From positions 1 to 38,732 of the forward strand of contig JBJTIJ010000336.1 in the NCBI GenBank assembly GCA_046094945.1: 38,732 bases of DNA, in the 5' to 3' direction. Position 1 is the stretch's first letter. Every line of letters starts with the position of its first letter. The translations under genes and the position numbers were made by a program. The stretch comes from Planctomycetia bacterium (GTDB lineage: Bacteria; Planctomycetota; PLA2; JAEUHO01). Shown in pieces: positions 7,974-36,155 of the stretch. Below the pieces are notes generated by a model. It made no database searches, was not told the DNA's origin, and saw only the letters and a program-made list of their open reading frames with translations.

Positions 7974-8075
7974 GGGGGCAGTCTACGCGGCGCGCACGGC
8001 CTCGAGGCCGCCCGCGGCGCGCGGGGCCTGCTTGGTGCCGCGGTCGCGGCGGATAGGGTGCACGCGGAGGCCGCC

Positions 8076-8525
8076 ATGACCGACCTGCGCGCCGAGGACG
8101 TGATCGCTGCGCTGGGCCTCGAGCCGCACCCGGAGGGGGGCTGCTACCGCGAGACGTGGCGCGAGCCTGCCGCCGGCGGCGGCCGCGCGCAGGCCACCTC
8201 GATCTACTACCTGCTGCGGGCCGGCGAGCGCTCGGCCTGGCACCAGGTGGATGCGGCCGAGCTGTGGTGCTTCCACGCCGGTGCGCCGCTGGAGCTCTCG
8301 CTGTGGGCCGAGGGCGAGCCCGGCGTCGAGCGCGCCACGCTGGGCATGGACCTCGCCGCAGGCCAGCGCCCGCAGGCGCTGGTGGCGCCGCGGCGCTGGC
8401 AGGCCGCCCGCAGCCTGGGCGCCTGGACGCTGGTGGGGGCCACCGTGGCGCCCGGCTTCGAGTTCGCCGGCTTTCGCCTGGCCCCCGCGGGCTGGGAGCC
8501 GCCGCGTGGGACGCCCGCCGCCTAG
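8076..8525 (+). CDS. cupin-fold protein, DUF985 family
   Basis: In-frame ATG 8076 within track ORF 7359..8525. LGLEPHPEGGCYRETWR...SIYYLLRAGERSAWHQVDAAELWCFHAGAPLEL...TLVGATVAPGFEFAGFRL is the DUF985/Cupin_5 pattern. Confidence 0.8.
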   Translation: MTDLRAEDVIAALGLEPHPEGGCYRETWREPAAGGGRAQATSIYYLLRAGERSAWHQVDAAELWCFHAGAPLELSLWAEGEPGVERATLGMDLAAGQRPQALVAPRRWQAARSLGAWTLVGATVAPGFEFAGFRLAPAGWEPPRGTPAA

Positions 8526-12001: not shown

Positions 12002-12196
12002 GCAGGCACCTCACGGCAGGGACCTGCTGGCCGTCCCGTGCGGGAGCGGGCCGTGCGTGCCTGCGCGGGAGCCGTGGCCCGCGCGGGCACGGGAGCGCCC
12101 CCAGCCGGGGGCCTCCCAACCACGGCGCGGACTCTAGCAGCCGCGGCCCGCGGGGACGAGGGCAAGGCGCGGCGCGCTCGCGCCTAGGATCGGGGC

Positions 12197-13885
12197 ATGG
12201 CCCGCGCCCGATCCCGCCCGACTGCGCGTGCCGCGCCCGCCGGCGCCGGGCCCTGCCGCCAGCTGGTGCTGGTGCTGGGCGACCAGCTCGACGAGCGCTC
12301 GGCCGCCCTCGACGGGCTCGACCCGCGCACCGACCGCGTGTGGATGGCCGAGGTGGCGGGCGAGTCCACGCACGTGTGGTCGGGCAAGGCGCGCATCGCG
12401 CTGTTCCTCTCCGCCATGCGTCACTTCCGCGACACGCTGCGCGCGCGCGGCCTGCCGGTGGAGTACGTGGACCTCGAGGAGGAGGGCAACACCCAGTCGC
12501 TGGCCGGCGAGCTGGCGCGTGCGCTGCAGCGCCTGCGGCCCGGGCGCGTGGTGGTGGTGGAGCCGGGCGAGTGGCGCGTGGCGCAAGACCTCGCACGCGT
12601 GGCCGCCGAGGCCGGCGTGCCGCTGGAGGTGCGCACCGACCGGCACTTCTACGCCACGGTGGACGAGTTCCGCGAGCACGCCGAGGGCCGCAGGCAGGTG
12701 CGGCAGGAGTGGTGGTACCGCGAGCTCAGGCGCAAGCATGGCGTGCTGCTGGATGCTGCCGGCGGCCCCGAGGGCGGCGAGTGGAACTACGACGCGGACA
12801 ACCGCGCCTCGTTCGGCAAGGCGGGCCCGCCGCTGCATGCCCCGCCGCGCGCCTTCCCGCCCGACGCGCTCACGCGCGAGGTGCTGGCGCTGGTGGGGCG
12901 GCGCTTCGCGGGCCACCCGGGCGCGCTGGAGGCCTTCGACTGGCCCGTGACGCGCGCGCAGGCGCTGCAGGCGCTGGAGGACTTCGTGCGCCACCGGCTG
13001 CCGTGGTTCGGCGAGTGGCAGGACGCCATGTGGGCTGGCGAGCCCTGGCTGTTCCACTCGCGGCTCTCGGCCGCGCTCAACCTCAAGCTGCTGGACCCGC
13101 GCGAGGTGGTGGGGGCGGCCGAGGCGGCCTGGCGCGCGGGGCGCGTGCCGCTGGCCTCGGCCGAGGGCTTCATCCGGCAGGTGCTGGGCTGGCGCGAGTA
13201 CGTGCGCGGCATCTACTGGACGCAGATGCCCAGCTACCTCGAGCGCAACGCGCTGGGCGCCGGCGAGCCGCTGCCGGCGTGGTTCTGGACCGGCGACACG
13301 CCCATGCGCTGCCTGCAGGACGCGCTGGGGCAGACGCTGCGGCTGGGCTACGCGCACCACATCCAGCGCCTGATGGTGACGGGCCTCTACACGCTGCTGC
13401 TGGGCGTGGCGCCCAAGCAGGTGCACGCGTGGTACCTCGCCGTGTACGTGGACGCGGTGGAGTGGGTGGAGCTGCCCAACGTGCTGGGCATGAGCCAGCA
13501 CGCCGACGGCGGCCTGATGGCCTCCAAGCCCTACGTGGCCACGGGCAAGTACATCGAGCGCATGGGCAACCACTGTGCGTCGTGCCCCTACGACCCGGCC
13601 AAGGCCACCGGCGCGGACGCCTGCCCCTTCACCACGCTCTACTGGGACTTCCTGCTGCGCCACGAGGCGCGCCTGGCGCGCAACCCGCGCATGGGGCTGC
13701 AGGTGAAGAACCTCGCGCGGCTCGCGCCCGCCGAGCGCAAGGCCATCGCGGCCGCGGCGCAGGCGCACCGGGCCGCCATGGCCGCGCCGGCGGCCAAGGC
13801 CGGGCTGGCAGGCAAGGCAGCGCCCGCAGCGGAGGCCGCGCCGCAGGCCCGGGCTCGCCGCCCGCGCGGCGGGCCGCGGCCCTAG
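12197..13885 (+). CDS. cryptochrome/photolyase family protein of the FeS-BCP type ((6-4) photolyase PhrB/CryB-like)
   Basis: Track ORF of 562 aa. LVLVLGDQLD...RVWMAEV..ESTHVWSGKARIALFLSAMRHF is the N-terminal pattern of this subfamily. The C-terminal Cys pattern MRC...NHCASCPYDP..x12..ACPFTTLYWDFL fits the 4Fe-4S ligands. It has an Ala-rich tail. Confidence 0.85.
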   Translation: MARARSRPTARAAPAGAGPCRQLVLVLGDQLDERSAALDGLDPRTDRVWMAEVAGESTHVWSGKARIALFLSAMRHFRDTLRARGLPVEYVDLEEEGNTQSLAGELARALQRLRPGRVVVVEPGEWRVAQDLARVAAEAGVPLEVRTDRHFYATVDEFREHAEGRRQVRQEWWYRELRRKHGVLLDAAGGPEGGEWNYDADNRASFGKAGPPLHAPPRAFPPDALTREVLALVGRRFAGHPGALEAFDWPVTRAQALQALEDFVRHRLPWFGEWQDAMWAGEPWLFHSRLSAALNLKLLDPREVVGAAEAAWRAGRVPLASAEGFIRQVLGWREYVRGIYWTQMPSYLERNALGAGEPLPAWFWTGDTPMRCLQDALGQTLRLGYAHHIQRLMVTGLYTLLLGVAPKQVHAWYLAVYVDAVEWVELPNVLGMSQHADGGLMASKPYVATGKYIERMGNHCASCPYDPAKATGADACPFTTLYWDFLLRHEARLARNPRMGLQVKNLARLAPAERKAIAAAAQAHRAAMAAPAAKAGLAGKAAPAAEAAPQARARRPRGGPRP

Positions 13886-14640
13886 CTGACCGGCCCGGGC
13901 GCGCGCACGAGCACGTGCTCGAGGTCGAGGCGCTCGCGCACCGCGCGCGCGATCGCCAGCGCGCCCGGCGTGTCGCCGTGCAGGCACAGCGTGTCGGCCC
14001 GCACGCTGAGCTCGACGCCCTCCACGCGCAGGCGCCCGTGGGCCAGCTCCACGGCCTGCGCCGCGGCCTGCTCGGGGTCGGTGAGCAGGGCGTCGGGCTG
14101 CGTGCGCGGCACGAGGCGGCCGTCCTGCGCGTAGCGCCGGTCGGCGAAGGCCTCGGCCGCCACGGAGAGGCCCATCGAGCGCCACAGCGCCAGCGCGGGG
14201 CTGCCGGCCTGGCCCACCAGCACCAGCCGCGGGCTCACGCCCTGCACGGCGCGCGCCAGCGCCAGCGCCACCTCGGGCGAGCGTGCGCTGTCGTGGTAGA
14301 GGGCGCCGTGCGGCTTGACGTGCGCGAGCCACGTGCCCTCGGCCCGCGCGCAGGCCGCCAGCGCCTGCAGCTGCTCGAAGACCTCGGCCTCCAGCTGGCT
14401 GGGCCCCAGCGCCATGGGCCGGCGCCCGAAGCCCGCACGGTCGGGGTAGGAGGGATGTGCGCCCAGTGCCACGCCACGCTCCAGGCACAGGCGGGCCAGC
14501 GTGCGCATCGAGCCCTCGTCGCCGGCGTGCCCGCCGCAGGCCACGTTGGCGCTGCTCACCCAGGCCAGCAGCGCGGCGTCCAGCGCGCGCGAGGCGGGGT
14601 CCTCGCCCAGGTCGCAGTTCAGGTCCAGCGCCGCGATCAC
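13882..14640 (-). CDS. pxpA: 5-oxoprolinase subunit A (LamB/YcsF family)
   Basis: GTG 14640 inside track ORF 13882..15597. VIAALDLNCDLGE...ANVACGGHAGD...GAHPSYPD...HVKPHGALY are family motifs. There is a 4-bp GTGA overlap with the pxpC stop. Confidence 0.88.
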   Translation of the reverse strand: MIAALDLNCDLGEDPASRALDAALLAWVSSANVACGGHAGDEGSMRTLARLCLERGVALGAHPSYPDRAGFGRRPMALGPSQLEAEVFEQLQALAACARAEGTWLAHVKPHGALYHDSARSPEVALALARAVQGVSPRLVLVGQAGSPALALWRSMGLSVAAEAFADRRYAQDGRLVPRTQPDALLTDPEQAAAQAVELAHGRLRVEGVELSVRADTLCLHGDTPGALAIARAVRERLDLEHVLVRAPGPVS

Positions 14641-15629
14641 GGGGCCGCTCCTGCGCGCGCGCCGGCGTCCGCGCCCGCCACGGGAGCCAGCAGGGCGTCG
14701 AGCCGCGCGGCGCGCGCCTCGCTGGCCGCGCGCGCCTGCTGCGGCGTGATGCGCACCAGCCGCACCTGCTCGCCGGGGCGCCACTGTGCGGCGCGCGGCA
14801 GGTCCACGGCGGCCAGGCAGGCCAGCATGGGGTAGCCGCCCGTGGGCGGCGCGTCGCACAGCAGCACGATGGCCTCGCCGGCGCGCGGTACCTGCACCGC
14901 GCCCACGGGCATGCCCTCGGTGGGCAGGCGGCCGTCGCCGGGCGGGGCCACGTCGGGCCCACGCATGCGCACGCCCATGCGGTTGCCCTGCGAGCCCACG
15001 CGCCAGGCCCCGGCCCAGAAGCGCTCGCGCGCCGCCGGCTCGAAGAGCGCGGCGTGCGCGCCGTCGGTGGCGTGCACGTGCGGCGCGAGCAGCCAGGCCA
15101 GCAGCTCGGCCTGTGCCGGGGCCGCCAGCGCCGGGCCCGGCCTGCCCCCGGGCGGCGCGGACAGCTCGAGGCGCGCACCGGCGGCCAGCGCGTGCCCGCC
15201 CAGCCCGCTGGGCAGGTGGGCACTGCGGCTGCCGAGCACGGCCGGCGCGCGGATGCCGCCGGCCACGGAGAGGCAGGCGCGTGCGCCCACGCGCGCCGGG
15301 CCCACCTCGAGCTCGCTGCCGTGGGGCAGGTCGTGCGCGGCAAGGGGTTCCAGCAGGCGCGGCGCCGCACCCTGCACGTGCAGCCGTGCCTCCATCGGCG
15401 CGCCGGCCAGCGCCACGCGCGCGCCCTGCTCGATGCGGTAGCGGCCGCCCGTGAGCGTGAGCTCGAGCGCGGCGGCGCCGTCGGGGTTGCCCACCAGCCG
15501 GTTGGCCACGCGCAGGGAGAGCGTGTCGGCCGCGCCGGCGCGCGCCACGCCCAGCGCGGCCAGGCCGGGCCGGCCGAGGTCCTGCACGCTGGTGCACAGG
15601 CCGGGCTCGAGCACGAGCAGCGTGGCCAT
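14637..15629 (-). CDS. pxpC: 5-oxoprolinase subunit C (allophanate hydrolase subunit 2 / KipA family)
   Basis: ATG 15629 inside track ORF 14637..15887. MATLLVLEPGLCTSVQDLGRPG...GNRMGVRMRG...PTGGYPMLA is the typical pattern. Confidence 0.88.
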   Translation of the reverse strand: MATLLVLEPGLCTSVQDLGRPGLAALGVARAGAADTLSLRVANRLVGNPDGAAALELTLTGGRYRIEQGARVALAGAPMEARLHVQGAAPRLLEPLAAHDLPHGSELEVGPARVGARACLSVAGGIRAPAVLGSRSAHLPSGLGGHALAAGARLELSAPPGGRPGPALAAPAQAELLAWLLAPHVHATDGAHAALFEPAARERFWAGAWRVGSQGNRMGVRMRGPDVAPPGDGRLPTEGMPVGAVQVPRAGEAIVLLCDAPPTGGYPMLACLAAVDLPRAAQWRPGEQVRLVRITPQQARAASEARAARLDALLAPVAGADAGARAGAAP

Positions 15630-15630
15630 C

Positions 15631-16353
15631 TCAGCAGGCCCTCGCACCGGCGGCACGGTCCAGCGCGGCCAGCGGCGCGTGCGGGCCGGCCTCCAGGCGC
15701 AGGTGGTCGCCGGGCGCCAGCAGCGCTGGCGGCACGTGCTGCGCATCGAAGAGGCGCGTGGCCGTGCGGCCCAGCAGGCGCCAGCCGCCGGGCGTGGGTG
15801 CCGGGTAGATGCCCGCCTGCGCGCCCGCCACGGCCACGCTGCCAGCCGGCACGCGTGCGCGGGGCGAGGGCAGGCGCGGCACGCCAAGGCGCGGGTCCAG
15901 CCCGTGCAGGTAGGGGAAGCCGGGCGCGAAGCCCAGCAGCTGCACGCGGTAGGTGGGCGCCAGCAGGCGGGCCGTCACCTCGCCCGGCGGCAGGCCGCAG
16001 GCCGCGGCCACGCTGTCCCGGTCGGGCGCGCAGGCCGGGCAGGTGCACACCGCCAGCACCACCGTGCGCGAGGCTCGCGGCAGCGCCGCGGCGTGAAGGC
16101 CCTCGGCCAGCACGTCGGCCACGCGGGCCTCCAGCTGCTCGAGGCCCGCGCCGGCCTCGTCGAGCACGACCAGCAGGCTGTCCCACGCCGGCACGAGGTC
16201 CTGCACGCCGGGCAGCTGCGCGGCGGCCAGCGCGCTGCGCAGCGCGTGCACGCGCTCGCCGCGCTCCTCGGCCTGCGCGCCGGCCACCTGCACGCGCAGG
16301 GCGTGGCCGCCCACCCAGGCGAGCGTCAGGCCGTCGGGCAGGGGCGCAGGCAC
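15631..16353 (-). CDS. pxpB: 5-oxoprolinase subunit B (allophanate hydrolase subunit 1 / KipI family)
   Basis: Track ORF with a GTG start. YRVQLLGFAPGFPYLHGLDPRL..PRLPSPRARVPAGSVAVAGAQAGIYP..TPGGWRLLGRT is the typical pattern. It ends 1 nt before the pxpC start. Confidence 0.88.
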   Translation of the reverse strand: MPAPLPDGLTLAWVGGHALRVQVAGAQAEERGERVHALRSALAAAQLPGVQDLVPAWDSLLVVLDEAGAGLEQLEARVADVLAEGLHAAALPRASRTVVLAVCTCPACAPDRDSVAAACGLPPGEVTARLLAPTYRVQLLGFAPGFPYLHGLDPRLGVPRLPSPRARVPAGSVAVAGAQAGIYPAPTPGGWRLLGRTATRLFDAQHVPPALLAPGDHLRLEAGPHAPLAALDRAAGARAC

Positions 16354-16380
16354 GCGCGCAATCCTACGCCGGTCGCTGCC

Positions 16381-17349
16381 TCAGGACATCAGCACGACGG
16401 TGTAGCCGATCCAGCCCGCCGCCAGCAGCGCGCCTTCCAGCCGCGTGATGCGGCCGCGCCACGCGCTCAGGGACAGCAGCAGCACCGTGGCCAGCAGCAT
16501 GACGGGCGTGTCCAGCTGCAGCACCTGCGGCGCCACGCGCTGCGGCGTGATGGAGGCCGTGGCGCCCAGCACGCCGGCGATGTTGAACACGTTGCTGCCC
16601 ACCACGTTGCCCACGGCGATCTCGGAGCGGCCGCGCAGCGCGGCCACCAGCGAGGTGACCAGCTCGGGCATGCTGGTGCCGCCGGCCACGATGGTCAGGC
16701 CGATGGCGAGGTCGGAGACGCCCCACAGCTTGGCGATCCGCACTGCGTTGTCCACCAGCATGTCGGCGCCCCACACCAGCAGCGCCAGGCCCACGAGGAT
16801 GTAGGCGGCACTCTTGAGCGGGTGCGCCACGGCCTCGGGCGTGGCGCCCTTGAGGTCGGCCTCGGCCCGCGCCTCGATGGCCGGCTCCTTGGCCTGCTGG
16901 CGGCCGGCGCGGTAGGCGCGCACGACGTAGGCCACCAGGCCCAGCACCATCAGCACGCCCAGCCAGCGCGGCAGCAGCGATCCGGGGAAGAAGCATGCCA
17001 GCCAGGGCAGGCTGGCGGTCACCAGCAGGGGCAAGGCCTCGCCGCGCAGCAGGGCCATCGGCACCGGGATGGGCTGCACCACCGCCACGAGGCCCAGGAT
17101 GATGGCGATGTTGAAGATGTTGCTGCCGACCACGTTGCCCACGGCGATGTCGCCCGCGCCCTGCAGGCCGGCGGAGATGGAGGCGAACATCTCGGGCGAG
17201 GAGGTGCCGAAGCCCACGATGGTGAGCCCGATGACGAAGGGCGAGAGGCCCAGCCGGCGGGCCACGGCCGAGGCGCCACGCACGAGGGCCTCGGCCCCGA
17301 GCGAGAGCACGACCAGCGACAGCAGGATCCAGAGGGCGGGCTCGAGCAC
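16381..17349 (-). CDS. Ca2+/Na+ antiporter (CaCA family, YrbG-like)
   Basis: Track ORF of 322 aa. It has two alpha-repeats: GLTIVGFGTSSPEMF...GNVVGSNIFNI and GLTIVAGGTSMPELV...GNVVGSNVFNI. Confidence 0.88.
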   Translation of the reverse strand: MLEPALWILLSLVVLSLGAEALVRGASAVARRLGLSPFVIGLTIVGFGTSSPEMFASISAGLQGAGDIAVGNVVGSNIFNIAIILGLVAVVQPIPVPMALLRGEALPLLVTASLPWLACFFPGSLLPRWLGVLMVLGLVAYVVRAYRAGRQQAKEPAIEARAEADLKGATPEAVAHPLKSAAYILVGLALLVWGADMLVDNAVRIAKLWGVSDLAIGLTIVAGGTSMPELVTSLVAALRGRSEIAVGNVVGSNVFNIAGVLGATASITPQRVAPQVLQLDTPVMLLATVLLLSLSAWRGRITRLEGALLAAGWIGYTVVLMS

Positions 17350-18151: not shown

Positions 18152-19780
18152 ATGCGTGCTGCTGCCTGGACGGCGCTGGGCCTGCTGGCGCTGCTGCTGC
18201 TGGGCGCATGCCGCGCCGTGGGACCCGCCTACCAGCGCCCGGACGCCGGCGTGCCGGCCACCTTCCGTGACGAGGAGGCGGCCTGCGCCCTGTGCGCCGC
18301 CGACCAGTCGTGGTGGCAGGTCTACGCCGACCCGGTGCTGGTGGCCCTCGTGCGCGAGGCCGTGGAGCGCAACCAGGACCTCGAGCAGGCGGCGGCGCGC
18401 GTGGAGGCGGTGCGCGCCTCCATCGGGCTGGCGCGCTCGCAGGGCCAGCCGCAGGTGGACGCCGAGCTGGGCGTGGAGCGACGCAGCTACTCGCAGGCCG
18501 GCAGCCCCTTCCCGCTGAGCAACCGCGTGCGCACCTCGATCGTCGCGGGCCTGGGCGCCAGCTGGGAGCTGGACCTGTGGGGCCGGGTGCGGCGCAGCAC
18601 CGAGGCTGCGTGGGCCGACTGGCAGGCCAGCGAGTGGGGCCGGCGCGCCGTGCTGGTGTCGCTGGTGGCCGAGGTGGCCTCCGGCTACCTCGAGCTGCTG
18701 GCGCTGGACTGGCAGCTGGCCATCACGCGCGAGACGGTGCTCACGCGCCGCAGCACGCTCGACCTCTTCAAGCGCCGCCTCGAGGGCGGGGTGGGCAGCG
18801 AGCTGGAGGTGGCCCGCGCCACGGGCGACCTCGCCGACGTGGAGGCCGACGTGCCGGCCTTCCTCGCGCTCGTGTCGCAGAAGGAGAACCAGCTCTGCCT
18901 GCTGCTGGGCCGCATGCCCGGGCCCATCGCGCGCGGGCTGCCGCTGGACGCAGGCCGCACGGGGCCGCAGATCCCGCCGGGCCTCACCTCCGAGCTGCTC
19001 GAGCGCCGCCCCGACGTGCGCGCGGCCGAGGAACAGCTCAAGGCGGCCGTCGCGCGCGTGGGCGTGGCCAAGGCCGACCGGCTGCCACGCATCGCGCTCA
19101 CCGGCACGGCAGGCGTGCAGAGCGAGGACCTCGAGCTGCTCACCAGCTCGGATGCGCTGGCGTGGACGCTGGGCAGCAACCTGGTGGGGCCGCTGCTCGA
19201 CGGCGGGCGGCGCGCCGCGCAGGAGCGCGCCGCGTGGGCGCGCGCCCGCGAGGCGCAGGCGGCCTGGCGCGGTGCGGTGCAGTCGGCCTTCCGGGACGCG
19301 GCCGACGCGCTGGCCGTGCTGGCGCAGGCGCGCAAGGTGGTCGCTGCGCAGGTGCAGCAGGTGGCCGCGCGCCGGCGCGGCCTGGAGCTGGCCACGAAGC
19401 GCTTCGAGGGCGACCTGGCCTCCTACTTCGAGGTGCTCGACGCCCAGCGCGAGCTGTTCCCGGCCCAGCTGCAGCTGGCGCTGGCCAAGCGCGAGGAGCT
19501 GGTGTCGGTGGTGCGCCTCTACCGCGCGCTGGGCGGGGGCTGGGACAGCGAGCGCGCGCAGGCCGCCGTCGAGCCCGCGCCCCCCGCGCCTGCGCCTGCG
19601 CCTGCGGCGGCGCAGCCCGCGGCGCCCGCGGCGCCTGCCGTCGCGGCAGCCCCGGTGGCGGCTGCGCAGGCGGTCCCGGCGGCCCCGGCCGCCGCTCAGG
19701 CCGCAGCCCCGGCCGCCGCCGCGGTGCGCCTGCCGGCCCAGCCGGCGGTGCCCGAGGCCGCCCCGGCCGGGACGCGCTAG
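18152..19780 (+). CDS. efflux outer membrane factor lipoprotein (NodT/OprM family) with Ala/Pro-rich tail
   Basis: Track ORF of 542 aa with GGAGGGA upstream. Lipobox LLLGAC, then GPAYQRPD...WWQVYADPVL..LV.EA...NQDL typical of NodT-family OMFs. The last ~75 aa are low-complexity A/P. Confidence 0.88.
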   Translation: MRAAAWTALGLLALLLLGACRAVGPAYQRPDAGVPATFRDEEAACALCAADQSWWQVYADPVLVALVREAVERNQDLEQAAARVEAVRASIGLARSQGQPQVDAELGVERRSYSQAGSPFPLSNRVRTSIVAGLGASWELDLWGRVRRSTEAAWADWQASEWGRRAVLVSLVAEVASGYLELLALDWQLAITRETVLTRRSTLDLFKRRLEGGVGSELEVARATGDLADVEADVPAFLALVSQKENQLCLLLGRMPGPIARGLPLDAGRTGPQIPPGLTSELLERRPDVRAAEEQLKAAVARVGVAKADRLPRIALTGTAGVQSEDLELLTSSDALAWTLGSNLVGPLLDGGRRAAQERAAWARAREAQAAWRGAVQSAFRDAADALAVLAQARKVVAAQVQQVAARRRGLELATKRFEGDLASYFEVLDAQRELFPAQLQLALAKREELVSVVRLYRALGGGWDSERAQAAVEPAPPAPAPAPAAAQPAAPAAPAVAAAPVAAAQAVPAAPAAAQAAAPAAAAVRLPAQPAVPEAAPAGTR

Positions 19781-23084: not shown

Positions 23085-23945
23085 TCAGCGCGCCGCCTGC
23101 TCGGGCGGCAGCCGCCGGCGCAGCGGCAGGTCGAGCCAGGCCTTGCCGGCGCGCGCCGCCTCGCGGGCGTCGCCGGCCGCCGAGGCCTGGAAGGCACGCC
23201 CGGCCAGCGCCAGCGCGCGGCGCGCCTCGGCCACGCCCGGCTCGCCCAGCCTGTCGAGCAGCACGCCGCCTAGCGTGCCCCACAGCAGGATGCGCGTGCT
23301 GGGCCGCGCGCCCTCGGCCTCGGCCCGCGCCCCCAGCCGGCGCAGCCCTGCGAGGTCGCCCTCGCCGGCGGCCAGGCGCGCCAGCGCCTCGAGGGCCTCG
23401 TCGGCCTGCCAGGGGAGCTCGCGCCGGGCCAGGCGTGCGGCCTGCTCCCAGCAGCCGGCGGCGGCGGCCAGGTCGCCCTCGGCCTCCAGCCGGCTCGCCT
23501 GCAGGTCGCAGCGCGCGGCCCGCTCGGGCTCGTGCAGCGGCGTCTGCTGCGTCGCCCAGGCTTCCAGCGCGGCGGCCGCGTGCACGCGTCCTTGCTCGCG
23601 CAGCACGCGAGCCTCGGCAGCCAGCGCGCGCAGCACCAGCGGATCGCGCGCGTGCGTCGCGTGGCGCACGGCGCGGTAGGCCCGCACGCGCGTGCGCCAG
23701 GGCTGCGCGCCCAGCTGGCGCGTGCGCTCCCAGGCCTCGCGCGCCTCGGCGGGACCGGCGCGGGCCGGCTGCGCCAGGCTGCCCAGCAGCAGCGCGGCCC
23801 ACAGCGCGGCGCGCAGAGAGTCCCACAGAGAGGCCAGCCGTCTGCGGTCGGCGCGCACGCCGGAGGCCCTGCCCGGCGCGGGAAGTCGCTGCGGCCTAGG
23901 GCGCATGCGCCGGCTTCCCGCCAGGTGCAGGGCCTTGCGCGCCAC
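23085..23945 (-). CDS. hypothetical alpha-helical repeat (TPR-like) protein with N-terminal TM/signal segment; candidate anti-sigma partner
   Basis: Track ORF (GTG 23945; alternative ATG 23906). The hydrophobic segment LWDSLRAALWAALLLGSLAQPARA is followed by Ala/Leu/Arg/Glu-rich helical repeats. Third-codon positions are almost all G/C in this frame right up to 23945. No recognisable ZAS motif. Confidence 0.55.
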   Translation of the reverse strand: MARKALHLAGSRRMRPRPQRLPAPGRASGVRADRRRLASLWDSLRAALWAALLLGSLAQPARAGPAEAREAWERTRQLGAQPWRTRVRAYRAVRHATHARDPLVLRALAAEARVLREQGRVHAAAALEAWATQQTPLHEPERAARCDLQASRLEAEGDLAAAAGCWEQAARLARRELPWQADEALEALARLAAGEGDLAGLRRLGARAEAEGARPSTRILLWGTLGGVLLDRLGEPGVAEARRALALAGRAFQASAAGDAREAARAGKAWLDLPLRRRLPPEQAAR

Positions 23946-24846
23946 GCGCGCCGCCCGTCATGCGCGGCACGTGCAGGCGCCCGGGCCCGCGCGCAAGGCG
24001 CGGTGCGCGCCGTGCCGGCGCGGGGACGCGCGGCCCGTGCGCTGCCCGGGCCGGCGTGCTGCCGGCGGCCGGCGGCGCCCCGGCTGCAGGCGGCGCCTCT
24101 GCTGCAGGCCGCACCCCTGCTGCAGGCTGCGCAGGGCCGGCGGGCCGCAGGCGCGCGCCCGCCGTGCGCGTACGGCGCGTGCTGCACGGGCCGGCCTCGC
24201 CGCAGCCGCTGGCCTGGCTGCGCGCCACCGCGCCATGGCGCGGGCCGTCGCCTGCGCCGGGGCCCAGCCGGCCCGCCAGCGCGCTGCGCAGGTGCTCGCG
24301 GGCGCGCACCAGGCGCATCTTCACGCCGCCGCGCGTGGTGCCCAGCAGCTGGGCGGTGCGCTCGAGGTCGTAGCCCTGCAGGTAGTGCAGCTCGACGGCG
24401 GCGCCGTAGCCGCGCGGCAGCGCCTGCACGGCCTCGCGCAGCAGCTGGTGCGTGGCGCCTTGCTCGCGCACCACGTCGGGCGCCGCCTCGCCGGCCCCCG
24501 TGCGCCACGGCTGCAGCGCCTCCGGCACGGGCAGGGCCGAGAGCTGGGCCATGGGGCGGCCGCGCCAGGCGTGCTTGCGCCGCCACGAGGCGGCGCGGCA
24601 GCGCGTGACGCGGAAGCACCAGCTGCGCAGGTGGTCCGCATCGCGGAAGCGCGTGCGCTGGCCCCAGGCGGCCACGCAGGTCTCCTGCACGGCGTCGCGG
24701 CTGGCATGGCCGTCGCCGCGCAGCAGCGAGGAGGCGAAGCGCACGAGGTCGCCCTCGAGCGCGGCAAACGCGCGGCAGAAGGCCTCCTGCTCGCCGTACG
24801 GTGCAGCGTGCGGCGCAAGCGGAGGCGTGGAATGGTTCAACGCCAC
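23896..24846 (-). CDS. ECF-type RNA polymerase sigma-70 family factor (3' end uncertain)
   Basis: GTG 24846 (GGAG 7 nt upstream) inside track ORF 23896..25716. Region 2 is GDLVRFASSLLRGDGHASRDAVQETCVAAWGQRTRF.DADHLRSWCFRVTR. Region 4 is LPRGYGAAVELHYLQGYDLERTAQLLGTTRGGVKMRLVRAREHL. The frame stays open about 130 codons past region 4, but codon-position bias stops supporting it near 24160. Confidence 0.78.
   Translation of the reverse strand: MALNHSTPPLAPHAAPYGEQEAFCRAFAALEGDLVRFASSLLRGDGHASRDAVQETCVAAWGQRTRFRDADHLRSWCFRVTRCRAASWRRKHAWRGRPMAQLSALPVPEALQPWRTGAGEAAPDVVREQGATHQLLREAVQALPRGYGAAVELHYLQGYDLERTAQLLGTTRGGVKMRLVRAREHLRSALAGRLGPGAGDGPRHGAVARSQASGCGEAGPCSTRRTRTAGARLRPAGPAQPAAGVRPAAEAPPAAGAPPAAGSTPARAAHGPRVPAPARRAPRLARGPGRLHVPRMTGGARGAQGPAPGGKPAHAP
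24083..24136. repeat. 18-bp periodic repeat, GCTGCAGGC x3
   Basis: gctgcaggc occurs at 24083, 24101 and 24119, exactly 18 bp apart, giving three PstI-type CTGCAG sites. It lies in the ambiguous stretch downstream of sigma region 4. Confidence 0.9.
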
Positions 24847-25224
24847 GGATCGGCTCCGTGGCCCCGTGCCCTGGCCCACGCCACCCTCGCGCGCAGGCGC
24901 GCGCCGGTCACGCGGGACAAGGCATCCCTGCACGCAGCATCGCGCGCCTCGCCCGCGGCGGTCAAGGGCCCGGTGTCGGCCTGCCGGCTGCGGCAGGTGT
25001 CCTCGCAGGGGGGCACGGCGGGATGGGGGCACGGCGGCATGCGGCAGCGGGCAGGCGGCAGCGGGCCAGGGAGCGTCCCGGCGCCCGTGCATGGCCTGCC
25101 CGCCGCCTGCCAGGGAGCGGCCCAGCGCCCGCTCGGTGCCAGCTGGCGGCCGCCGCCGAGGCCTGCGGCGGCCGCCCTGCCCGCCGTCGGCCTGCCCCTG
25201 GCCGCCCCAGGGCTGGCCTACGGG

Positions 25225-25257
25225 TGCCCTCTGGCTGCCCTCTGGCTGCCCTCTGGA
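25225..25257. promoter_or_regulatory. three tandem 11-bp direct repeats (tgccctctggc) upstream of the PASTA-array gene
   Basis: Copies at 25225-25235, 25236-25246 and 25247-25257 (the last ends in a). They lie 113-145 nt upstream of ATG 25370 in the 523-bp divergent spacer. The repeat is certain; a regulatory role is inferred. Confidence 0.4.
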
Positions 25258-25369
25258 TGGCAGGGGGCGGCGCATGGTTTGCTCTCCCCCCCTGTCGTCT
25301 CCCCACGAGGGCCCCTCGGGGCCTCTGTGGGGGCCCCCAGGGTCCCCCGCGTCCTTCCCGGAGCACCTG

Positions 25370-28090
25370 ATGCCTGCCGCCTGCCCTGCCCGTCCGGCCC
25401 TGCTGCGCACCTGCCTCGCCGCCCTGCTGGCCCTGCTGCTGGCTCCGGCGCTGGCCCCGTGGCTGGGCGTGGGCCAGCCGGCACAGGCGCGCGCCGAGGG
25501 CGAGGCCCCGGGCAACGCTGCCGGCGTGGCCACGGTGGACGTGCCCGACCTCGCCGGCCGCGGCGTGGACGACGCGCGCCACGCCCTCGAGGCGCTGGGC
25601 CTGCAGCCGGTGCTGGTGCCGGTGGCCGGCCCCGCGGTGGACGTGGTGGAGCGCCAGGAGCCGCCGGCCGGCAGCCGCCTCGCGCCCGGCGCGCAGGTGA
25701 TGCTGCGCCACGGCATCGCGCTGCGGCTGGAGACGCGCGTGCCGGCCGTGGTGGGCCGCCTGATGGCCGACGTGGGCGCCGACCTCGAGGGCGCCTACGC
25801 GCTCGAGGTGGAGGTGGTGGTGGATCCTGCGCGCCAGGAGGGCGAGATCCTCGCGACGCGCCCGGCGGCGGGCGAGGCGCTGTGGTACCGCGGCGTGCTG
25901 GCGCTCAAGGTGGCCTCGGTGGCGCCGCCGGCCTACCCGACCTCCATCGTGCCCGCGCTGGTGGGGCTGGAGGAGCAGGAGGCCGTGCAGCAGGTGCTCT
26001 CCAGCGGGCTGCGCGCCAGCGTGGAGGTGCGCCGCGACCCGTCCACGCCCGCCGGGCGCGTGATCTCGCAGGAGCCGGCCTCGGGCGCCGAGATGGTGTC
26101 CGGCGGCACCGTGTTCCTGCGCGTGTCGGGCGACCCGCTGCCCGAGCTGCCGCCCGAGCTGCCGGTGCTAGTGCCGCCGCTGCTGGGCATGGAGATGAAC
26201 GCGGCGCTGGGCACGGCGCAGGCGCAGGGCTTCGTGCCCACGGTGGTGTTCCAGGCGCAGGCCGGGGCCGCGCCCTGGACCGTGCTGGCGCAGGAGCCGG
26301 CGCCCGGCGCGCCGTCGCGTGCGGGCGCGGTGCTGGCCCTGACGGTGGCGCTGCCGGCGGCGCAGCCGGTGCAGGTGAGCGTGCCGTCGCTGGCGGGGCT
26401 GGCCGAGGCGCACGCTGCGGCCCTGCTGCAGTCGCTGGGGCTGGGCGTGGCCTGGGTGCGCGAGCCCTCGGGCTGGCCGGCGGGCCTGGTCTTCGCGCAG
26501 GCCCCGGCGGCCGGCTCGCTGCTGCCGGCGCGCAGCATCGTGAGCGTGCGTGTCTCGACGGGCGGCCCGCCGCCCGTGGCCAGCGCCGTGGTGCCCTCGC
26601 TGGTGGGGATGGACCCGCTGCAGGCCTGGCTGCGCGCGCTGGCGGCGGGCTTCTCGCCGCGCGGCCTCAAGCACCTCGCGCCCGGCCTGCCGGTGGACAA
26701 GGTGGACGCGCAGTCGCCCGCGCCGGGCAGCGTGCTGCCGCGCGGCAGCGAGCTGCGCTTCTTCACGCCGCTGTCGGCGCGCGTGCCCGACCTCTCGGGC
26801 CTGACGCGCTCGCAGGCCATCGCGGCGCTGGAGGCCGCCGGCTTCAACGCGCAGCCGCAGGGCCCGCAGTTCGGCATCGGCACCACGCTGGTCACCGCGC
26901 AGGCGGTGGCCGCCGGGCGCGAGCTGGCGCGCGGCTCGCTGGTGCGCTTCACCTACATCTTCACCGTGGGCGGCGGCCTGCCGGCCAAGGTGGCCGTGCC
27001 CAGCCTGGTGGGCCTGACGAAGGAGGCCGCCGCCAGCGCGCTGCAGGCTGTGGGCCTGGGCATCCGCCTCGTGCGCGAGGGCCCCGTGCAGCCCGGGCTG
27101 GGCACGCGCGTGACCGTGCAGGCCCCGGCGCCCGGCACGCTGCGGCTGGTGGGCTCGCTGGTGGACGTCACCTACGTCGAGGTGGCCGGCGTGGGCCCGC
27201 TGCCGCCGTTGCCCTTCGTGACGGTGCCCGACCTCGCGGGCCTGAGCCTGCAGCTGGCCGAGGGCCGGCTGGGCCAGGCCGGCCTGCGCGCAGCCTTCGA
27301 GCGCCAGGGCCCGGCGCGCCCCGGCGACGGCACGCGCGTGCTGTCGCAGTCGCCCGCGGCCGGCGTGCGCGTGCTCAGCGGCACCACCGTGCGCGCGGTC
27401 TACGAGGAGGTGCTCTCGCTGCTGCCGCCCGCGGGCACGGTGAGCGTGCCCGACCTGGTGGGCGCCACGCGCGAGGATGCGCAGCTGCGCCTGCAGCAGC
27501 GCGGCCTGCAGGGGCAGTTCGAGCGCCAGGGCGCGGTGCTGCCGGGCAACGGCACGCGCATCATCTCGCAGGCGCCGGCGGCCGGCACGCGCGTGCTGCC
27601 CGGCAGCACCGTGCGCGCCACCTTCGTGGAGGTGCTCTCGCTGGAGCCCCAGCCGCTGCGGCGCGCGGTGCCCAGCCTGGTGGGCATGACGCGCGAGGCC
27701 GCGCAGGACGCGCTGCAGGCGCTGGGCCTGCAGGCGCAGCTCGAGCGCCAGGGCCCGGTGGTGGCCGGGCAGGGCACGCGCGTGGTGTCGCAGTCGCCGG
27801 CGGCCGGCACGCAGGTGTTCGCGGGCAGCACGGTGCGCGTCACCTACATCGAGGTGCTCTCGCCGGTGGTGCTGCCGCCCGTGCAGCCGCTGCTGGCCAC
27901 CGTGCCCTCGCTGCAGGGCCTGCGCCTCTCCGAGGCCCGCCCGCAGCTGGAGGCGCTGGGCCTGCAGGTGGCGGTGGTGGGCCCCGCGGGCCTGCCGGCG
28001 CGCCTGCGCGTGGTGGGGCAGTCGCCCGCCGCCGGCGCGCGCGTGGCGCGCGGCAGCACGGTGCGCCTGACGGTGGTGCTCATCCCCTGA
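25370..28090 (+). CDS. secreted protein composed of about 12 tandem PASTA-like domains
   Basis: ATG 25370 (GGAG at 25360-25363) inside track ORF 24452..28090. A signal peptide is followed by 12 modules of about 65-75 aa, each with V-P-x-L-x-G ... L...G[LF] ... Q.P..G..[VL]..G..V.[LV]. No other domain is visible. Confidence 0.85.
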   Translation: MPAACPARPALLRTCLAALLALLLAPALAPWLGVGQPAQARAEGEAPGNAAGVATVDVPDLAGRGVDDARHALEALGLQPVLVPVAGPAVDVVERQEPPAGSRLAPGAQVMLRHGIALRLETRVPAVVGRLMADVGADLEGAYALEVEVVVDPARQEGEILATRPAAGEALWYRGVLALKVASVAPPAYPTSIVPALVGLEEQEAVQQVLSSGLRASVEVRRDPSTPAGRVISQEPASGAEMVSGGTVFLRVSGDPLPELPPELPVLVPPLLGMEMNAALGTAQAQGFVPTVVFQAQAGAAPWTVLAQEPAPGAPSRAGAVLALTVALPAAQPVQVSVPSLAGLAEAHAAALLQSLGLGVAWVREPSGWPAGLVFAQAPAAGSLLPARSIVSVRVSTGGPPPVASAVVPSLVGMDPLQAWLRALAAGFSPRGLKHLAPGLPVDKVDAQSPAPGSVLPRGSELRFFTPLSARVPDLSGLTRSQAIAALEAAGFNAQPQGPQFGIGTTLVTAQAVAAGRELARGSLVRFTYIFTVGGGLPAKVAVPSLVGLTKEAAASALQAVGLGIRLVREGPVQPGLGTRVTVQAPAPGTLRLVGSLVDVTYVEVAGVGPLPPLPFVTVPDLAGLSLQLAEGRLGQAGLRAAFERQGPARPGDGTRVLSQSPAAGVRVLSGTTVRAVYEEVLSLLPPAGTVSVPDLVGATREDAQLRLQQRGLQGQFERQGAVLPGNGTRIISQAPAAGTRVLPGSTVRATFVEVLSLEPQPLRRAVPSLVGMTREAAQDALQALGLQAQLERQGPVVAGQGTRVVSQSPAAGTQVFAGSTVRVTYIEVLSPVVLPPVQPLLATVPSLQGLRLSEARPQLEALGLQVAVVGPAGLPARLRVVGQSPAAGARVARGSTVRLTVVLIP
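27218..27883. repeat. three tandem 222-bp units (PASTA modules 9-11) with DNA-level similarity
   Basis: The GTGCCC(V-P) anchors at 27224, 27446 and 27668 are exactly 222 bp apart. The units share strings such as ttcgagcgccagggc, ggcacgcgc, gcggccggc and gaggtgctctcgc. Confidence 0.85.
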
Positions 28091-28098
28091 GCGCGCGC

Positions 28099-28156
28099 GC
28101 GGCTGCGCGTGCGGCTGCGCGTGGGCCGCTGTGCGGCCGGCTGCGCGGCCGGCTGA
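28099..28156. repeat. two adjacent pairs of 12-bp tandem duplications in a convergent intergenic spacer
   Basis: gcggctgcgcgt x2 (28099-28122) and gcggccggctgc/gcggccggctga (28133-28156), between the PASTA gene stop and the YlbF-like gene stop. Confidence 0.85.
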
Positions 28157-28164
28157 CTCGTGGG

Positions 28165-28635
28165 CTAGGGCAGGATGATGCGGCTGGGGCCGCTGGCGGG
28201 CGGCTCGTCGCGCCTGGGCGCGCCATGGTCGCCATGGCCGTGGCCGCCGTGCCCCTCGTCGCCGTGGTCGCAGTCGGGGCCGTGCTCGTGGGGCTCGGCG
28301 CCCTGCACGCCGTCGAGGGCCGCCGAGATCGACATGGAGACCTGCTCCATCATCTGGGCGAACTCGGCGTTGGCGCGCAGCAGGTCCACCAGCACCACGC
28401 TGTTGCGCACCTGCTGCTCGAGGGCGGCCAGCGACTGCTTCATGGGCGCCTCGACGGGCCGGCCCACGCGCATCAGGTCCTCGACGTCCTGCAGCGCCTC
28501 GACGTAGCGCTGCTGCAGCTTCCTGTCGGCGGCCGAGGCGTCCAGCGCCGCGCGGGCGCGCTTGAGCGCCGCGGTGCGGGGATCGGCGGCCAGTGCCGCG
28601 GCCAGGGACTGCGTGAGGTCGGGGATCGTGCTCAT
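28165..28635 (-). CDS. YlbF/YmcA-like helical protein with His/Asp-rich C-terminal tail
   Basis: ATG 28635 inside track ORF 28165..30831. The helical pattern (LKRARAALDASAADRKLQQRYVEALQDVEDLM..., VLVDLLRANAEFAQMMEQVSMSI) resembles the Com_YlbF family from memory. The tail is EPHEHGPDCDHGDEGHGGHGHGDHG. Confidence 0.55.
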   Translation of the reverse strand: MSTIPDLTQSLAAALAADPRTAALKRARAALDASAADRKLQQRYVEALQDVEDLMRVGRPVEAPMKQSLAALEQQVRNSVVLVDLLRANAEFAQMMEQVSMSISAALDGVQGAEPHEHGPDCDHGDEGHGGHGHGDHGAPRRDEPPASGPSRIILP

Positions 28636-34337: not shown

Positions 34338-36155
34338 TCAGCGGACGTAGAAGCCGAAGCGGTAGGTGAGGGTCTTGGACTGGCCGGGCTCGAGGGTGAG
34401 GTCCCAGGCGATGTCGCTGTGGTTGTTGACGGCGTAGGCGCCGCCGGTCCAGTCCTCGGCCTTGAGGTCGTTGACCACGATGCGGCCCTGGTCGGAGGCT
34501 TCCTCGACCTTGCCGCCCACCGAGACGGTCACGCGCAGGGGCGAGGCTTCCTTGCGGAAGGAGGTCGCCGTGACGGTGCCCTGCTTGACCACCAGCGAGT
34601 AGGACTCGCCGGACCACGCGATGGCGTTGGGGCGTCGCTCCAGCTCGCGCTCCTCGTAGCGCCCGCGCAGGTCCACGGCGACGGTCATGGGCAGCAGGGT
34701 CTTGCCGCCCGGCGAGGTGTAGCGCAGCACGTCCTGGCCCAGGGGCAGGTCGCCCTTGAGCAGCAGGGCGGCGCCGGTCGTCCAGGGCTGCGTGCCCGTG
34801 TTGGCGAGCTCGAGCTCGTGCCACACCAGGCTGGCCGGGGCCGGCCGGGCGCCGCGGGTGGGCGCGGCCGAGGCGGCCTTGGCGCTCTGGTAGACGTGCT
34901 CGCCCGAGCGCTGGTTGCGCACGACTTCCACGTCCAGCGTGTAGAGGTGGCGCAGCGGCGCGGTCGCCTGCCAGAGGGGCACGCTGGCCCGCGCGCCGCG
35001 CGCGAGGTCCACGCGCCCCACCGCGTGCACGAACAGGTCCTGCTCGCTGCGGCCTGCGAGCTCGGCCGGCGTCGCCGGGGCCGTGTCGCCTTCCTGCACG
35101 GCCATGTCCGACTGCTCGTTGCCGAAGGAGCGCATCGAGTTGGAGAGCATCTGCTGCGCCAGCTGCGGCGCGGCCGACTGCAGCGCGCCGCGCATGGCGC
35201 GCTCCAGGCTGAGCGGCGAGACCACGTCGCGGAAGCGGAAGGAGGGCACGCCGACGACGAGGTCCACGGCGGCGCCCGCGAGGTCCTCGGCCTCGTTGAG
35301 GATCTCGCCCTGCAGCGCGAGGCGCGCGTCGGCCTCGAGCGCCCCGCTCACGCGGTAGGTGGGGATCCAGCGCAGCCCCTCGGCGAAGTAGAGCAGGCGC
35401 AGGCTGGCGGGCTTGCCCGCCGACGCCGCCCCGAAGTCGAAGGTCAGGCGCTTGGCGCGGCGCACGACGCGTTCCGTGAGCAGCGTGCGGGTGGCGAGGT
35501 CCTTGCCGGAGCCGGTGCGCACCTCGGCCAGCGGCAGCACCAGGCGCGTGTCGCCCGACTGCAGCACGACCAGCTGCCCGCCGCGGGGCGTGACCTCCGT
35601 GACGGTCTCGCCTGCCGGCCCGGCCTCGGGGCCGGCCGGCTCGGGCTCGGGCGGCGCGGCCTGCTCGAGCACCTCCAGCACGCCCTCGACGTCGGGCGCG
35701 TTCTCGCGCACGAGCCCCAGCGTGACGCGCCGGCCCACGTTGGCGCGCAGCAGGTCGAGCGTCGTCACCGCGGCCGCCTCCCGCGTGCGCATGGTGCGCG
35801 TCGCGTGCCAGGCCGAGCGCATGGAGAGCACGCGCTCGTCGCCTGTCCCGGTCACGGCCCACACGCAGCCCAGCACGGCGGCGTCGGGCACGGCGTCGGT
35901 GAAGACCTGCCCGCGCTCGTCGGCCGTGCCCGTGGCGGCCTTCACGTACAGCGCATAGCCGTCCTTGAAGATCGCCACCCGCTCGGTGGCCAGCGTGAGG
36001 CGTCCCGGCTCCGCCGCCGCCGCGGCGGCCGGCGGGTCGCCGGCCACGGCAGGGCCAAGGCCGGCCAGCAGGCCCAGCGCCGCCAGCCCCGCCAGCCTCG
36101 CCACCCGGCAGGCCGTGCGTCGCACGCTGCCGCCCCGGACGTTCGTGCTGCGCAT
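34338..36155 (-). CDS. secreted hypothetical protein, DUF4139-like
   Basis: Track ORF of 605 aa with GGAGG upstream and a signal peptide (RVARLAGLAALGLLAGLGPAVAG). The N-terminal ERVAIFKDGYALYVK... and C-terminal ...IAWDLTLEPGQSKTLTYRFGFYV resemble the layout of DUF4140/DUF4139 proteins. The assignment is from memory. Confidence 0.55.
   Translation of the reverse strand: MRSTNVRGGSVRRTACRVARLAGLAALGLLAGLGPAVAGDPPAAAAAAEPGRLTLATERVAIFKDGYALYVKAATGTADERGQVFTDAVPDAAVLGCVWAVTGTGDERVLSMRSAWHATRTMRTREAAAVTTLDLLRANVGRRVTLGLVRENAPDVEGVLEVLEQAAPPEPEPAGPEAGPAGETVTEVTPRGGQLVVLQSGDTRLVLPLAEVRTGSGKDLATRTLLTERVVRRAKRLTFDFGAASAGKPASLRLLYFAEGLRWIPTYRVSGALEADARLALQGEILNEAEDLAGAAVDLVVGVPSFRFRDVVSPLSLERAMRGALQSAAPQLAQQMLSNSMRSFGNEQSDMAVQEGDTAPATPAELAGRSEQDLFVHAVGRVDLARGARASVPLWQATAPLRHLYTLDVEVVRNQRSGEHVYQSAKAASAAPTRGARPAPASLVWHELELANTGTQPWTTGAALLLKGDLPLGQDVLRYTSPGGKTLLPMTVAVDLRGRYEERELERRPNAIAWSGESYSLVVKQGTVTATSFRKEASPLRVTVSVGGKVEEASDQGRIVVNDLKAEDWTGGAYAVNNHSDIAWDLTLEPGQSKTLTYRFGFYVR

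Follow-up and report, generated by a model that had tools for sequence, protein, structure and literature searches.

A predicted exported protein of twelve PASTA modules and no enzyme domain, preceded by a conserved sigma-54-type element, in a diderm planctomycete

To our knowledge, work on PASTA domains has been confined to the short appendages, for sensing or localisation, of Gram-positive kinases and penicillin-binding proteins (PBPs), and the studied PASTA kinases carry 3-5 modules. A cell wall was first demonstrated in the Planctomycetota in 2015, and little is understood of how it is organised. Planctomycetes possess peptidoglycan (PMC4432640, PMC4432595). In PrkC, Stk1, PknB and StkP the PASTA repeats bind muropeptides in vitro, and PASTA repeats direct proteins to the sites of wall synthesis (PMC5786024); those of StkP control the thickness of the septal wall according to work cited in the same source (PMC5786024). 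The 38,732-nucleotide (nt) contig JBJTIJ010000336.1 of a Planctomycetia bacterium (assembly GCA_046094945.1), which was analysed as a whole and is called the window hereafter, encodes at 25370-28090 a protein of 906 amino acids (aa) that consists of a predicted signal peptide and twelve tandem PASTA modules, contains no kinase or transpeptidase domain, and is probably transcribed from a conserved sigma-54-type promoter. The gene, its candidate promoter and the parts of its product are as follows:

25370..28090, + strand: coding sequence of the poly-PASTA protein (906 aa, stop codon included in the coordinates), supported by codon-position GC periodicity, the Pfam PASTA profile and identity to an NCBI entry

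25269..25282, + strand: candidate sigma-54 -24/-12 element cGGCGCATGGTTTGCt, 88 nt before the start codon, with a GGC-N7-TTGC core

25370..25489 (aa 1-40), + strand: Sec-type signal peptide, predicted to be cut after AQA; sole hydrophobic segment, A-x-A conserved

25541..27223 (aa 58-618), + strand: modules 1-8, the constant part, 25-40 bits each except module 2, with the PASTA fold in the structural model

25739..25948 (aa 124-193), + strand: module 2, divergent and PASTA-like, below the Pfam cut-off (13.5 bits, E = 0.07)

27224..27901 (aa 619-844), + strand: modules 9-11, the variable cassette, with 53-65% mutual identity and 0-3 copies among orthologues

27902..28087 (aa 845-906), + strand: module 12, terminal, ending in TVVLIP, with the top single-module Pfam score (53 bits)

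An initial annotation, made from the letters alone, had proposed about twelve tandem PASTA-like modules, and twelve are found, starting at aa 58, 124, 194, 268, 338, 408, 472, 543, 619, 693, 767 and 845 and each opening with VP-x-[LV]-x-G (12/12). When the whole protein is scanned with the Pfam PASTA profile (PF03793), 11 stretches match (E = 3.3e-109, 357 bits against a cut-off of 23.2), and modules 10 and 11 fall inside them. Single-module scans, performed on ten modules (1-9 and 12) with the same cut-off of 23.2 bits, place nine of the ten above it at 25-53 bits, while the remaining one, module 2, is divergent in sequence yet shares the predicted fold of the others. Specifically, the AlphaFold model, built on 13 homologues, has a mean predicted local distance difference test score (pLDDT) of 76.8, with about 80-90 in the modules and less than 50 in the linkers, and gives all 12 modules a strand-helix-three-strand layout; in module 2 one helix and three strands are modelled at a pLDDT of 80-87. 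The predicted structure is that of beads on a string, joined by short, proline-rich linkers. In the fold comparison with Foldseek against the PDB, the top 29 matches are all PASTA domains (PknB, S. aureus Stk1/PrkC, PBP1, PBP2x, StkP), with M. tuberculosis PknB (5e12) at E = 3.4e-10 and single-domain template modelling (TM) scores of up to 0.83 (3ouv), and the PDB sequence search returns PknB PASTA regions only (2kui, E = 3.7e-10). Both the profile and the predicted fold identify the modules as true PASTA domains, and the two comparisons, which the initial annotation had proposed as checks, bear out its assignment; the outcomes it had named as speaking against it, namely no PASTA match, another fold or an upstream in-frame domain, were not encountered.

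The catalytic partners of the described PASTA proteins are absent. Pfam recognises only PASTA in the 906-aa open reading frame (ORF), with no Pkinase and no transpeptidase domain, and neither domain occurs in the neighbouring genes scanned. The kinase family model NF033483 (Stk1) reaches 244.5 bits against a cut-off of 450, its best stretch being model positions 364-561, which cover the PASTA part only, and the SpoVD model TIGR02214 reaches 98 bits against 688, with a best stretch restricted to model positions 581-632. Since the defining catalytic domains were tested and are absent, the protein belongs neither to the PASTA kinase family nor to the PASTA-bearing PBP family, as had been anticipated from the letters.

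Export was judged by rule, from Kyte-Doolittle hydropathy and the A-x-A motif. A 19-residue mean hydropathy above 1.6 is reached only within aa 7-36, after which come AQA and, beyond the predicted cut, RAE; an N-terminal hydrophobic stretch with an A-x-A motif is present in 12 of the 12 close homologues. The signal peptide carries neither a twin-arginine motif nor a lipobox, the mature part is cysteine-free, and the hydropathy scan finds no second hydrophobic segment in the 906-aa protein, which by the same rule agrees with the proposed signal peptide and lack of any further membrane anchor. The window also encodes an LpxC-FabZ fusion at 41-1450 (lpxC 225 bits against a cut-off of 187, fabZ 179 against 113) and an LpxA-like acyltransferase at 1447-2280, from which a diderm host had already been deduced, and a TolC-type outer-membrane efflux protein (OEP) gene at 18152-19780. 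The host genome is diderm, so the periplasm is the default destination of an exported protein in this planctomycete.

The region upstream of the gene contains a candidate promoter. cGGCGCATGGTTTGCt is the sole match to GGC-N6-TTTGC on both strands of the window. The GGC-N7-TTGC core precedes the PASTA gene by 46-101 nt on the coding strand in eight of nine homologous loci (the window and those designated L001, L006, L007, L009, L010, L013 and L014), with a chance of finding it at such a position of about 0.01-0.02 per locus; for the ninth, the upstream sequence extends over only 152 nt. Apart from the element, the intergenic DNA ahead of the PASTA genes barely aligns. The consensus of sigma-54 promoters is TGGCACG-N4-TTGCW, and the shared core has their -24/-12 spacing, although in the close clade C or G stands in place of the T before GG; the best matches to the consensus, TGGCCCGCTCCTTGCA and TGGCAGGGATCTTGCG, come from the two most distant loci. 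Transcription probably proceeds from this conserved sigma-54-type promoter, in which case the PASTA protein would be made on signal through an enhancer-binding activator, and comparative genomics ties sigma-54 to the control of envelope components (PMC3162934). No Sigma54_activat domain is present among the window genes scanned. Directly upstream of the element, an 11-nt unit (TGCCCTCTGGC/TGCCCTCTGGA) occurs in three direct repeats at 25226-25260 (+ strand), and the partly similar CTTCTGGCTGGCT occupies the matching place in L001; these repeats could be a regulator binding site. A generic promoter and terminator scan of 24700-28300 returns no sites, its AT-rich motifs being unlikely in DNA of 77% GC, and Rfam at gathering thresholds returns nothing in the whole window. 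The 5' leader of the PASTA gene folds no better than shuffled sequence (z = -1.1), and neither does the 75-nt stretch that separates the convergent PASTA and ylbF genes (z = -1.7).

Relatives of the protein are encoded in metagenome-assembled genomes (MAGs) of a Planctomycetota bacterium (71% identity), uncultured Planctomycetales and a Planctomycetia bacterium (about 50%), and their comparison reveals a common plan. Modules 1-8 are present position for position in all 13 aligned orthologues, and across ten orthologues of about 50% identity each has its own signature of 14-26 invariant columns; module 2, with 19, is conserved like the other constant modules. The orthologues have 9-12 modules, with the alignment gaps falling in the region of modules 9-11, and the last module is present in every orthologue and ends in Pro. 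The orthologue plan is hence one of eight constant modules, then a cassette of 0-3 modules, then one terminal module. In the window protein the highest similarity is that among modules 9-11, and the DNA that encodes this region contains a tandem repeat at 27280-27863 (period 222 nt, 2.6 copies, 78% matches), both of which indicate that the length shifts by recent tandem duplication near the C-terminal end. Conversely, judging from their invariant columns, the N-terminal eight modules are individually constrained, and these conserved modules may have module-specific partners.

The breadth of the class depends on how it is searched. A word-indexed search retrieves only 12 close PASTA-only relatives and then distant actinobacterial kinases, whereas an exhaustive HMMER search retrieves 9,855 representative clusters at E <= 0.001, 157 of them at E <= 1e-30. 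A census was made of the best 150 HMMER matches (designated by P numbers), in which modules were counted with a PASTA profile built from the window protein and a protein was taken as PASTA-only when it had no non-PASTA stretch longer than 120 aa. By this definition 86 of the best 150 clusters are PASTA-only, with at least 8 modules in 76 of the 86 and at least 12 in 29; the largest PASTA-only proteins have 31-32 modules, the maximum across the best 150 is 35, and an N-terminal hydrophobic segment is present in 48 of the 86. The uniqueness implied by the initial annotation is thus not borne out, although the search that it had suggested, for proteins of at least 8 PASTA modules and nothing else, yields these 76 clusters; the few named matches come from Planctomycetota (P0032, P0073, P0319) and Candidatus Hydrogenedentota (P0081). 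Likewise, its description of PASTA domains as enzyme-attached and present in 1-5 copies holds for the studied proteins and not for the natural range, which extends to 32 modules in PASTA-only proteins and to 12-13 in kinases. Specifically, a kinase-like layout with 8-14 modules by profile count occurs in 10 of the 150, and the two checked with Pfam, P0057 and P0086, are both Ser/Thr kinases with 12-13 PASTA modules. Other members combine the domain differently: P0051 joins a beta-helix/NosD region to 22 PASTA modules, and P0094 joins 14 PASTA modules to 8 InlB B-repeats. The domain combinations of P0051, P0094, P0057 and P0086 are previously unreported. Giant PASTA proteins are also present, with 31-35 modules in 2,161-2,633 aa (P0022, P0029, P0033), as is a relative of 3,802 aa (P0175), and the locus L011 carries at 8001-17281 a run of three PASTA genes with DUF8575 genes on its flanks. 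The window protein is one member of a large, automatically annotated class on which the literature search made here found no published study.

By analogy with the described PASTA proteins, the best-supported reading is that of a long periplasmic protein with many peptidoglycan-binding sites, which would serve as a scaffold, tether or spacer; we hold it with evenly balanced confidence. The envelope-related surroundings agree with it: the window carries LpxC-FabZ, LpxA and OEP genes, distant homologues adjoin HtrA-type proteases or an HldE-like gene, and the sigma-54-type element is conserved. The protein would be exported by Sec and released from its signal peptide as a soluble chain of twelve PASTA domains, which, with no catalytic or membrane-spanning part, would be located in the periplasm. 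There the modules would bind peptidoglycan or its precursors, as do the PASTA domains of PknB/PrkC/StkP and PBP2x/PBP1, and twelve weak sites in a row would produce a multivalent, elongated, wall-associated rod. A PASTA module is about 3-3.5 nm long, and a rod of twelve would measure roughly 35-45 nm. Its role would be that of a scaffold, tether or spacer and not of an enzyme; the cassette of 0-3 modules would alter the length of the chain between lineages, and transcription from the sigma-54-type promoter would be triggered via the enhancer-binding activator.

Several points weigh against this proposal. Not all PASTA domains bind peptidoglycan; that of PonA2 (PDB 2mgv), which is among the Foldseek matches, reportedly does not, and an identity of about 20-30% is too low to place the ligand-contacting Arg500 of PrkC reliably on the modules. 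The predicted TM score (pTM) of the AlphaFold model is 0.23, as expected of independent beads, which makes the overall shape of the model uninformative. From the sequence we infer that the signal peptide is cleaved and that the location is periplasmic rather than extracellular. Other poly-PASTA proteins are fused to a beta-helix or to InlB B-repeats, which are typical of surface proteins, and such fusions fit a generic structural role of the repeats. A literature search for poly-PASTA proteins, PASTA-only proteins and PASTA in Planctomycetes found no paper on a PASTA-only protein. Moreover, the roles of PASTA domains vary and binding differs among them (PMC5786024).

In the main rival, the PASTA modules would be structural beads only, would not bind peptidoglycan and would form a fibre, stalk or adhesin located at the outer membrane or outside it; we consider this possible but doubtful. 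The giant poly-PASTA proteins of 20-35 modules, the surface-protein-like fusions of P0051 and P0094 and the occurrence of three PASTA genes in a row on one contig would all suit a fibre, the number of modules changes by tandem duplication as in many adhesins, and the proline-rich linkers suggest an extended rod. However, no outer-membrane secretion or anchoring signal is recognised at either end of the window protein, whose C-terminus is a PASTA module in which no sorting signal was recognised by eye, and modules 1-8 keep position-specific sequences that are not expected of a pure spacer. In addition, all PASTA domains studied so far are associated with the cell wall (PMC5786024).

A further possibility, which we regard as unlikely, is that poly-PASTA-only proteins are length-tunable periplasmic rulers or tethers that set or sense spacing in the enlarged planctomycetal envelope. 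A free rod would then bind thin peptidoglycan along its length, and the gain or loss of modules (9-12 here, up to 35 in the largest relatives found) would adjust the spacing. If true, these proteins would represent a new class of envelope architecture protein and a diderm counterpart of the pneumococcal PASTA control of wall thickness.

The genes that adjoin the PASTA gene suggest another rival. Three of them are relevant:

23896..24843, - strand: extracytoplasmic function (ECF)-type sigma factor gene, divergent from the PASTA gene (Sigma70_r2, Sigma70_r4_2; sigma70-ECF 68 bits against 42.9)

23085..23858, - strand: tetratricopeptide repeat (TPR)-like partner, 257 aa, with a membrane helix at the N-terminus and then a TPR-like superhelix (pLDDT 91.8, all helical)

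28165..28635, - strand: YlbF/YmcA-family gene, convergent with the PASTA gene (Pfam Com_YlbF E = 4e-11)

The PASTA protein could be the ligand-sensing arm of the adjoining ECF sigma system, reporting through a membrane-anchored TPR anti-sigma partner; with wall fragments as its periplasmic ligands, it would be a kinase-free counterpart of the PASTA kinases. The sigma factor was assigned with Pfam (Sigma70_r2, Sigma70_r4_2) and NCBIfam (sigma70-ECF), and its divergent arrangement is kept in L001, L007, L008, L009 and L010, whose PASTA proteins are 47-72% identical to that of the window; the sigma gene and a gene for a membrane-helix/TPR protein of about 250 aa are conserved beside the PASTA gene in the window, L001, L007/L008, L009 and L010. 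The 257-aa protein has no Pfam or NCBIfam match, but its TPR fold is confidently predicted and Foldseek pairs it with the TPR domains of kinesin light chain and OGT. Its family numbers 9 clusters only, with the gene just downstream of the ECF sigma gene in each locus examined; the member P0188 has an additional cytoplasmic segment and membrane helix, an anti-sigma-like fusion, and in L007 and L010 the sigma and TPR genes are separated by a gene for a single-pass membrane protein of 133-151 aa. A direct link to the PASTA gene is nevertheless improbable. PASTA homologues at 39-41% identity lack an adjoining sigma gene: HtrA-type proteases adjoin P0023 and P0031, and P0028 adjoins a gene with PfkB and CTP_transf_like domains, a pair that we read as the heptose enzyme HldE. 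Conversely, L015 keeps the operon of sigma, small-protein and TPR genes in the same region, beside ClpB-Hsp20-DapA-PdxJ, and has no PASTA gene there, while the conserved element before the PASTA gene is of sigma-54 type and not of ECF type. As the sigma linkage is lost outside the closest clade, the ECF neighbour is treated here as shared descent in a narrow clade, which accounts for the linkage equally well; a functional ECF-PASTA link is possible as a minority hypothesis.

An ECF-type promoter common to the sigma and PASTA genes was sought by eye in the intergenic alignment, and none was found. The sigma gene has its own conserved element, similar to TTGAC[CG]-N17/18-TAGGAC (24844-24970, - strand; also in L006, L007, L009 and L010), and an inverted repeat (GTGGGCCCC/GGGGCCCAC) lies just ahead of its ribosome-binding site, where an RNA thermometer is conceivable given the nearby heat-shock genes. 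The sigma ORF is extended at its C-terminus by about 100 aa, in which Arg, Pro and Ala are abundant and a part is conserved with L001 (PGRLHVPR). The extension occupies the place at which a separate protein of 118-151 aa is encoded in L007, L010 and L015; a gene fusion, a frameshift and a real feature are all conceivable.

A periplasmic decoy that binds beta-lactams is very improbable. PASTA takes its name from a cefuroxime molecule bound in the PBP2x crystal, JGI labels homologues as 'beta-lactam-binding protein with PASTA domain', and the unrelated PASTA-only P0015 has a beta-lactamase gene 1.6 kb downstream; however, the label derives from the COG family name and not from data, the conserved neighbours include no resistance gene, and we know of no demonstration that beta-lactam binding is a general property of PASTA domains.

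The gene model itself was examined against the base composition of the window, which has a GC content of 72-80% (about 77% overall) and long ORFs in all six frames. Because such DNA yields chance ORFs, the real genes were picked by codon-position GC. The forward frame that holds the PASTA gene is open over 24452-28090, that is, for 918 nt (306 codons) ahead of the ATG, and part of this extension (24452-25369) lies opposite the sigma factor gene of the other strand. The coding signature (third-position GC of about 1.0, second-position of about 0.5) starts at about 25380 and continues to the PASTA stop codon, and the 906-aa translation from ATG 25370 is identical over its full length to NCBI MFM8980520.1, labelled 'MAG: PASTA domain-containing protein [Planctomycetia bacterium]'; the start at ATG 25370 that was first modelled can be retained on both grounds. 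An upstream in-frame kinase or PBP was considered and rejected, as 24841-25380 has no third-position GC periodicity, the extension 24452-25369 has no Pfam match, and a signal peptide starts every homologue. That the ORF is an artefact, either a chance frame of the kind that high GC and the open upstream stretch would allow or what an assembly error has left of a kinase or PBP gene, is already refuted by the onset of periodicity at the ATG, the extension with no Pfam match, the PASTA profile match and 12 independent homologues from different samples that begin with the same kind of signal peptide.

As for the remaining surroundings, the YlbF/YmcA family is best known from Bacillus, and its gene is found at the matching position in L001, L007, L009 and L010; the window protein of this family has a His/Asp/Gly-rich C-terminal tail (HEHGPDCDHGDEGHGGHGHGDHG) that resembles a metal-binding tail. 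Beyond the YlbF gene, PhoX and ClpB follow in the window and in L001, and the window continues with Hsp20, DapA and PdxJ. The named matches to the window ClpB at higher identity are a Planctomycetia bacterium (96%) and a Planctomycetota bacterium (71-73%), with no cultured organism among them; those at less than about 63% belong to mixed phyla. Between Hsp20 and DapA, a 569-aa ORF with a strong coding signal and no Pfam or NCBIfam match occupies 34338-36047 (- strand), and L012 has a 244-aa unannotated gene in its place. Lastly, 8522-12001 (- strand) encodes an exported subtilisin-like serine protease of 1,159 aa with three 'choice-of-anchor D' domains.

Proteins predicted to be exported and made up solely of 8-32 PASTA modules constitute a large class outside the set of studied proteins, and the named members of the class belong to the diderm phyla Planctomycetota and Hydrogenedentota; kinases with 12-13 modules occur as well. 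Functional statements on a PASTA-only protein stand at the level of annotation. If these proteins bind peptidoglycan, they would be a new kind of envelope component, a handle on the biology of the planctomycetal wall and a natural test of PASTA arrays, in which multivalent binding can be set against length. The conserved sigma-54-type promoter provides, in addition, a concrete regulatory hypothesis.

Among the known systems, the PASTA regions of the PknB/PrkC/Stk1/StkP kinases (NF033483; 2kui, 5e12, 3m9g, 3py9) are the best sequence and structure matches to the window protein and share with it the fold and the arrangement as tandem beads, which in the window protein, too, are predicted to lie outside the cytoplasmic membrane. 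Unlike them, the window protein has no kinase domain and no transmembrane helix, comprises 12 modules and belongs to a diderm and not to a Gram-positive host. The class B PBPs (PBP2x, S. aureus PBP1, SpoVD) likewise have the same fold (Foldseek 7o61, 2z2l, 5oau) and are extracytoplasmic and wall-associated, as the window protein is predicted to be, whereas the window protein lacks the transpeptidase and pedestal domains and has 12 modules versus 2. At most, it works like the enzyme-free extracellular arm of the PASTA kinases and PBPs. In StkP the number of repeats is possibly a length parameter, and the orthologues of the window protein differ by 0-3 modules; however, the StkP repeats are anchored to a membrane kinase while the window chain is free, and a role of length is suggested here by the variation in copy number.

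The closest likeness is to the PASTA-only proteins of the databases (COG2815, 'beta-lactam-binding protein with PASTA domain'), such as P0032, P0073 and P0081, which have a signal peptide and 8-32 modules; a COG2815 protein is a putative outer-membrane protein in a list for Leptospira (PMC1664576). The architecture is the same, and the orthologue group of the window is specific in its 8 + variable + 1 plan, its ClpB/Hsp20 synteny and its ECF neighbour. What is known already is the domain, and the architecture under an automatic database name; what is distinctive is the occurrence of many PASTA modules alone, the diderm planctomycete host, the plan of eight constant, a variable number and one terminal module, and the conserved sigma-54-type promoter.

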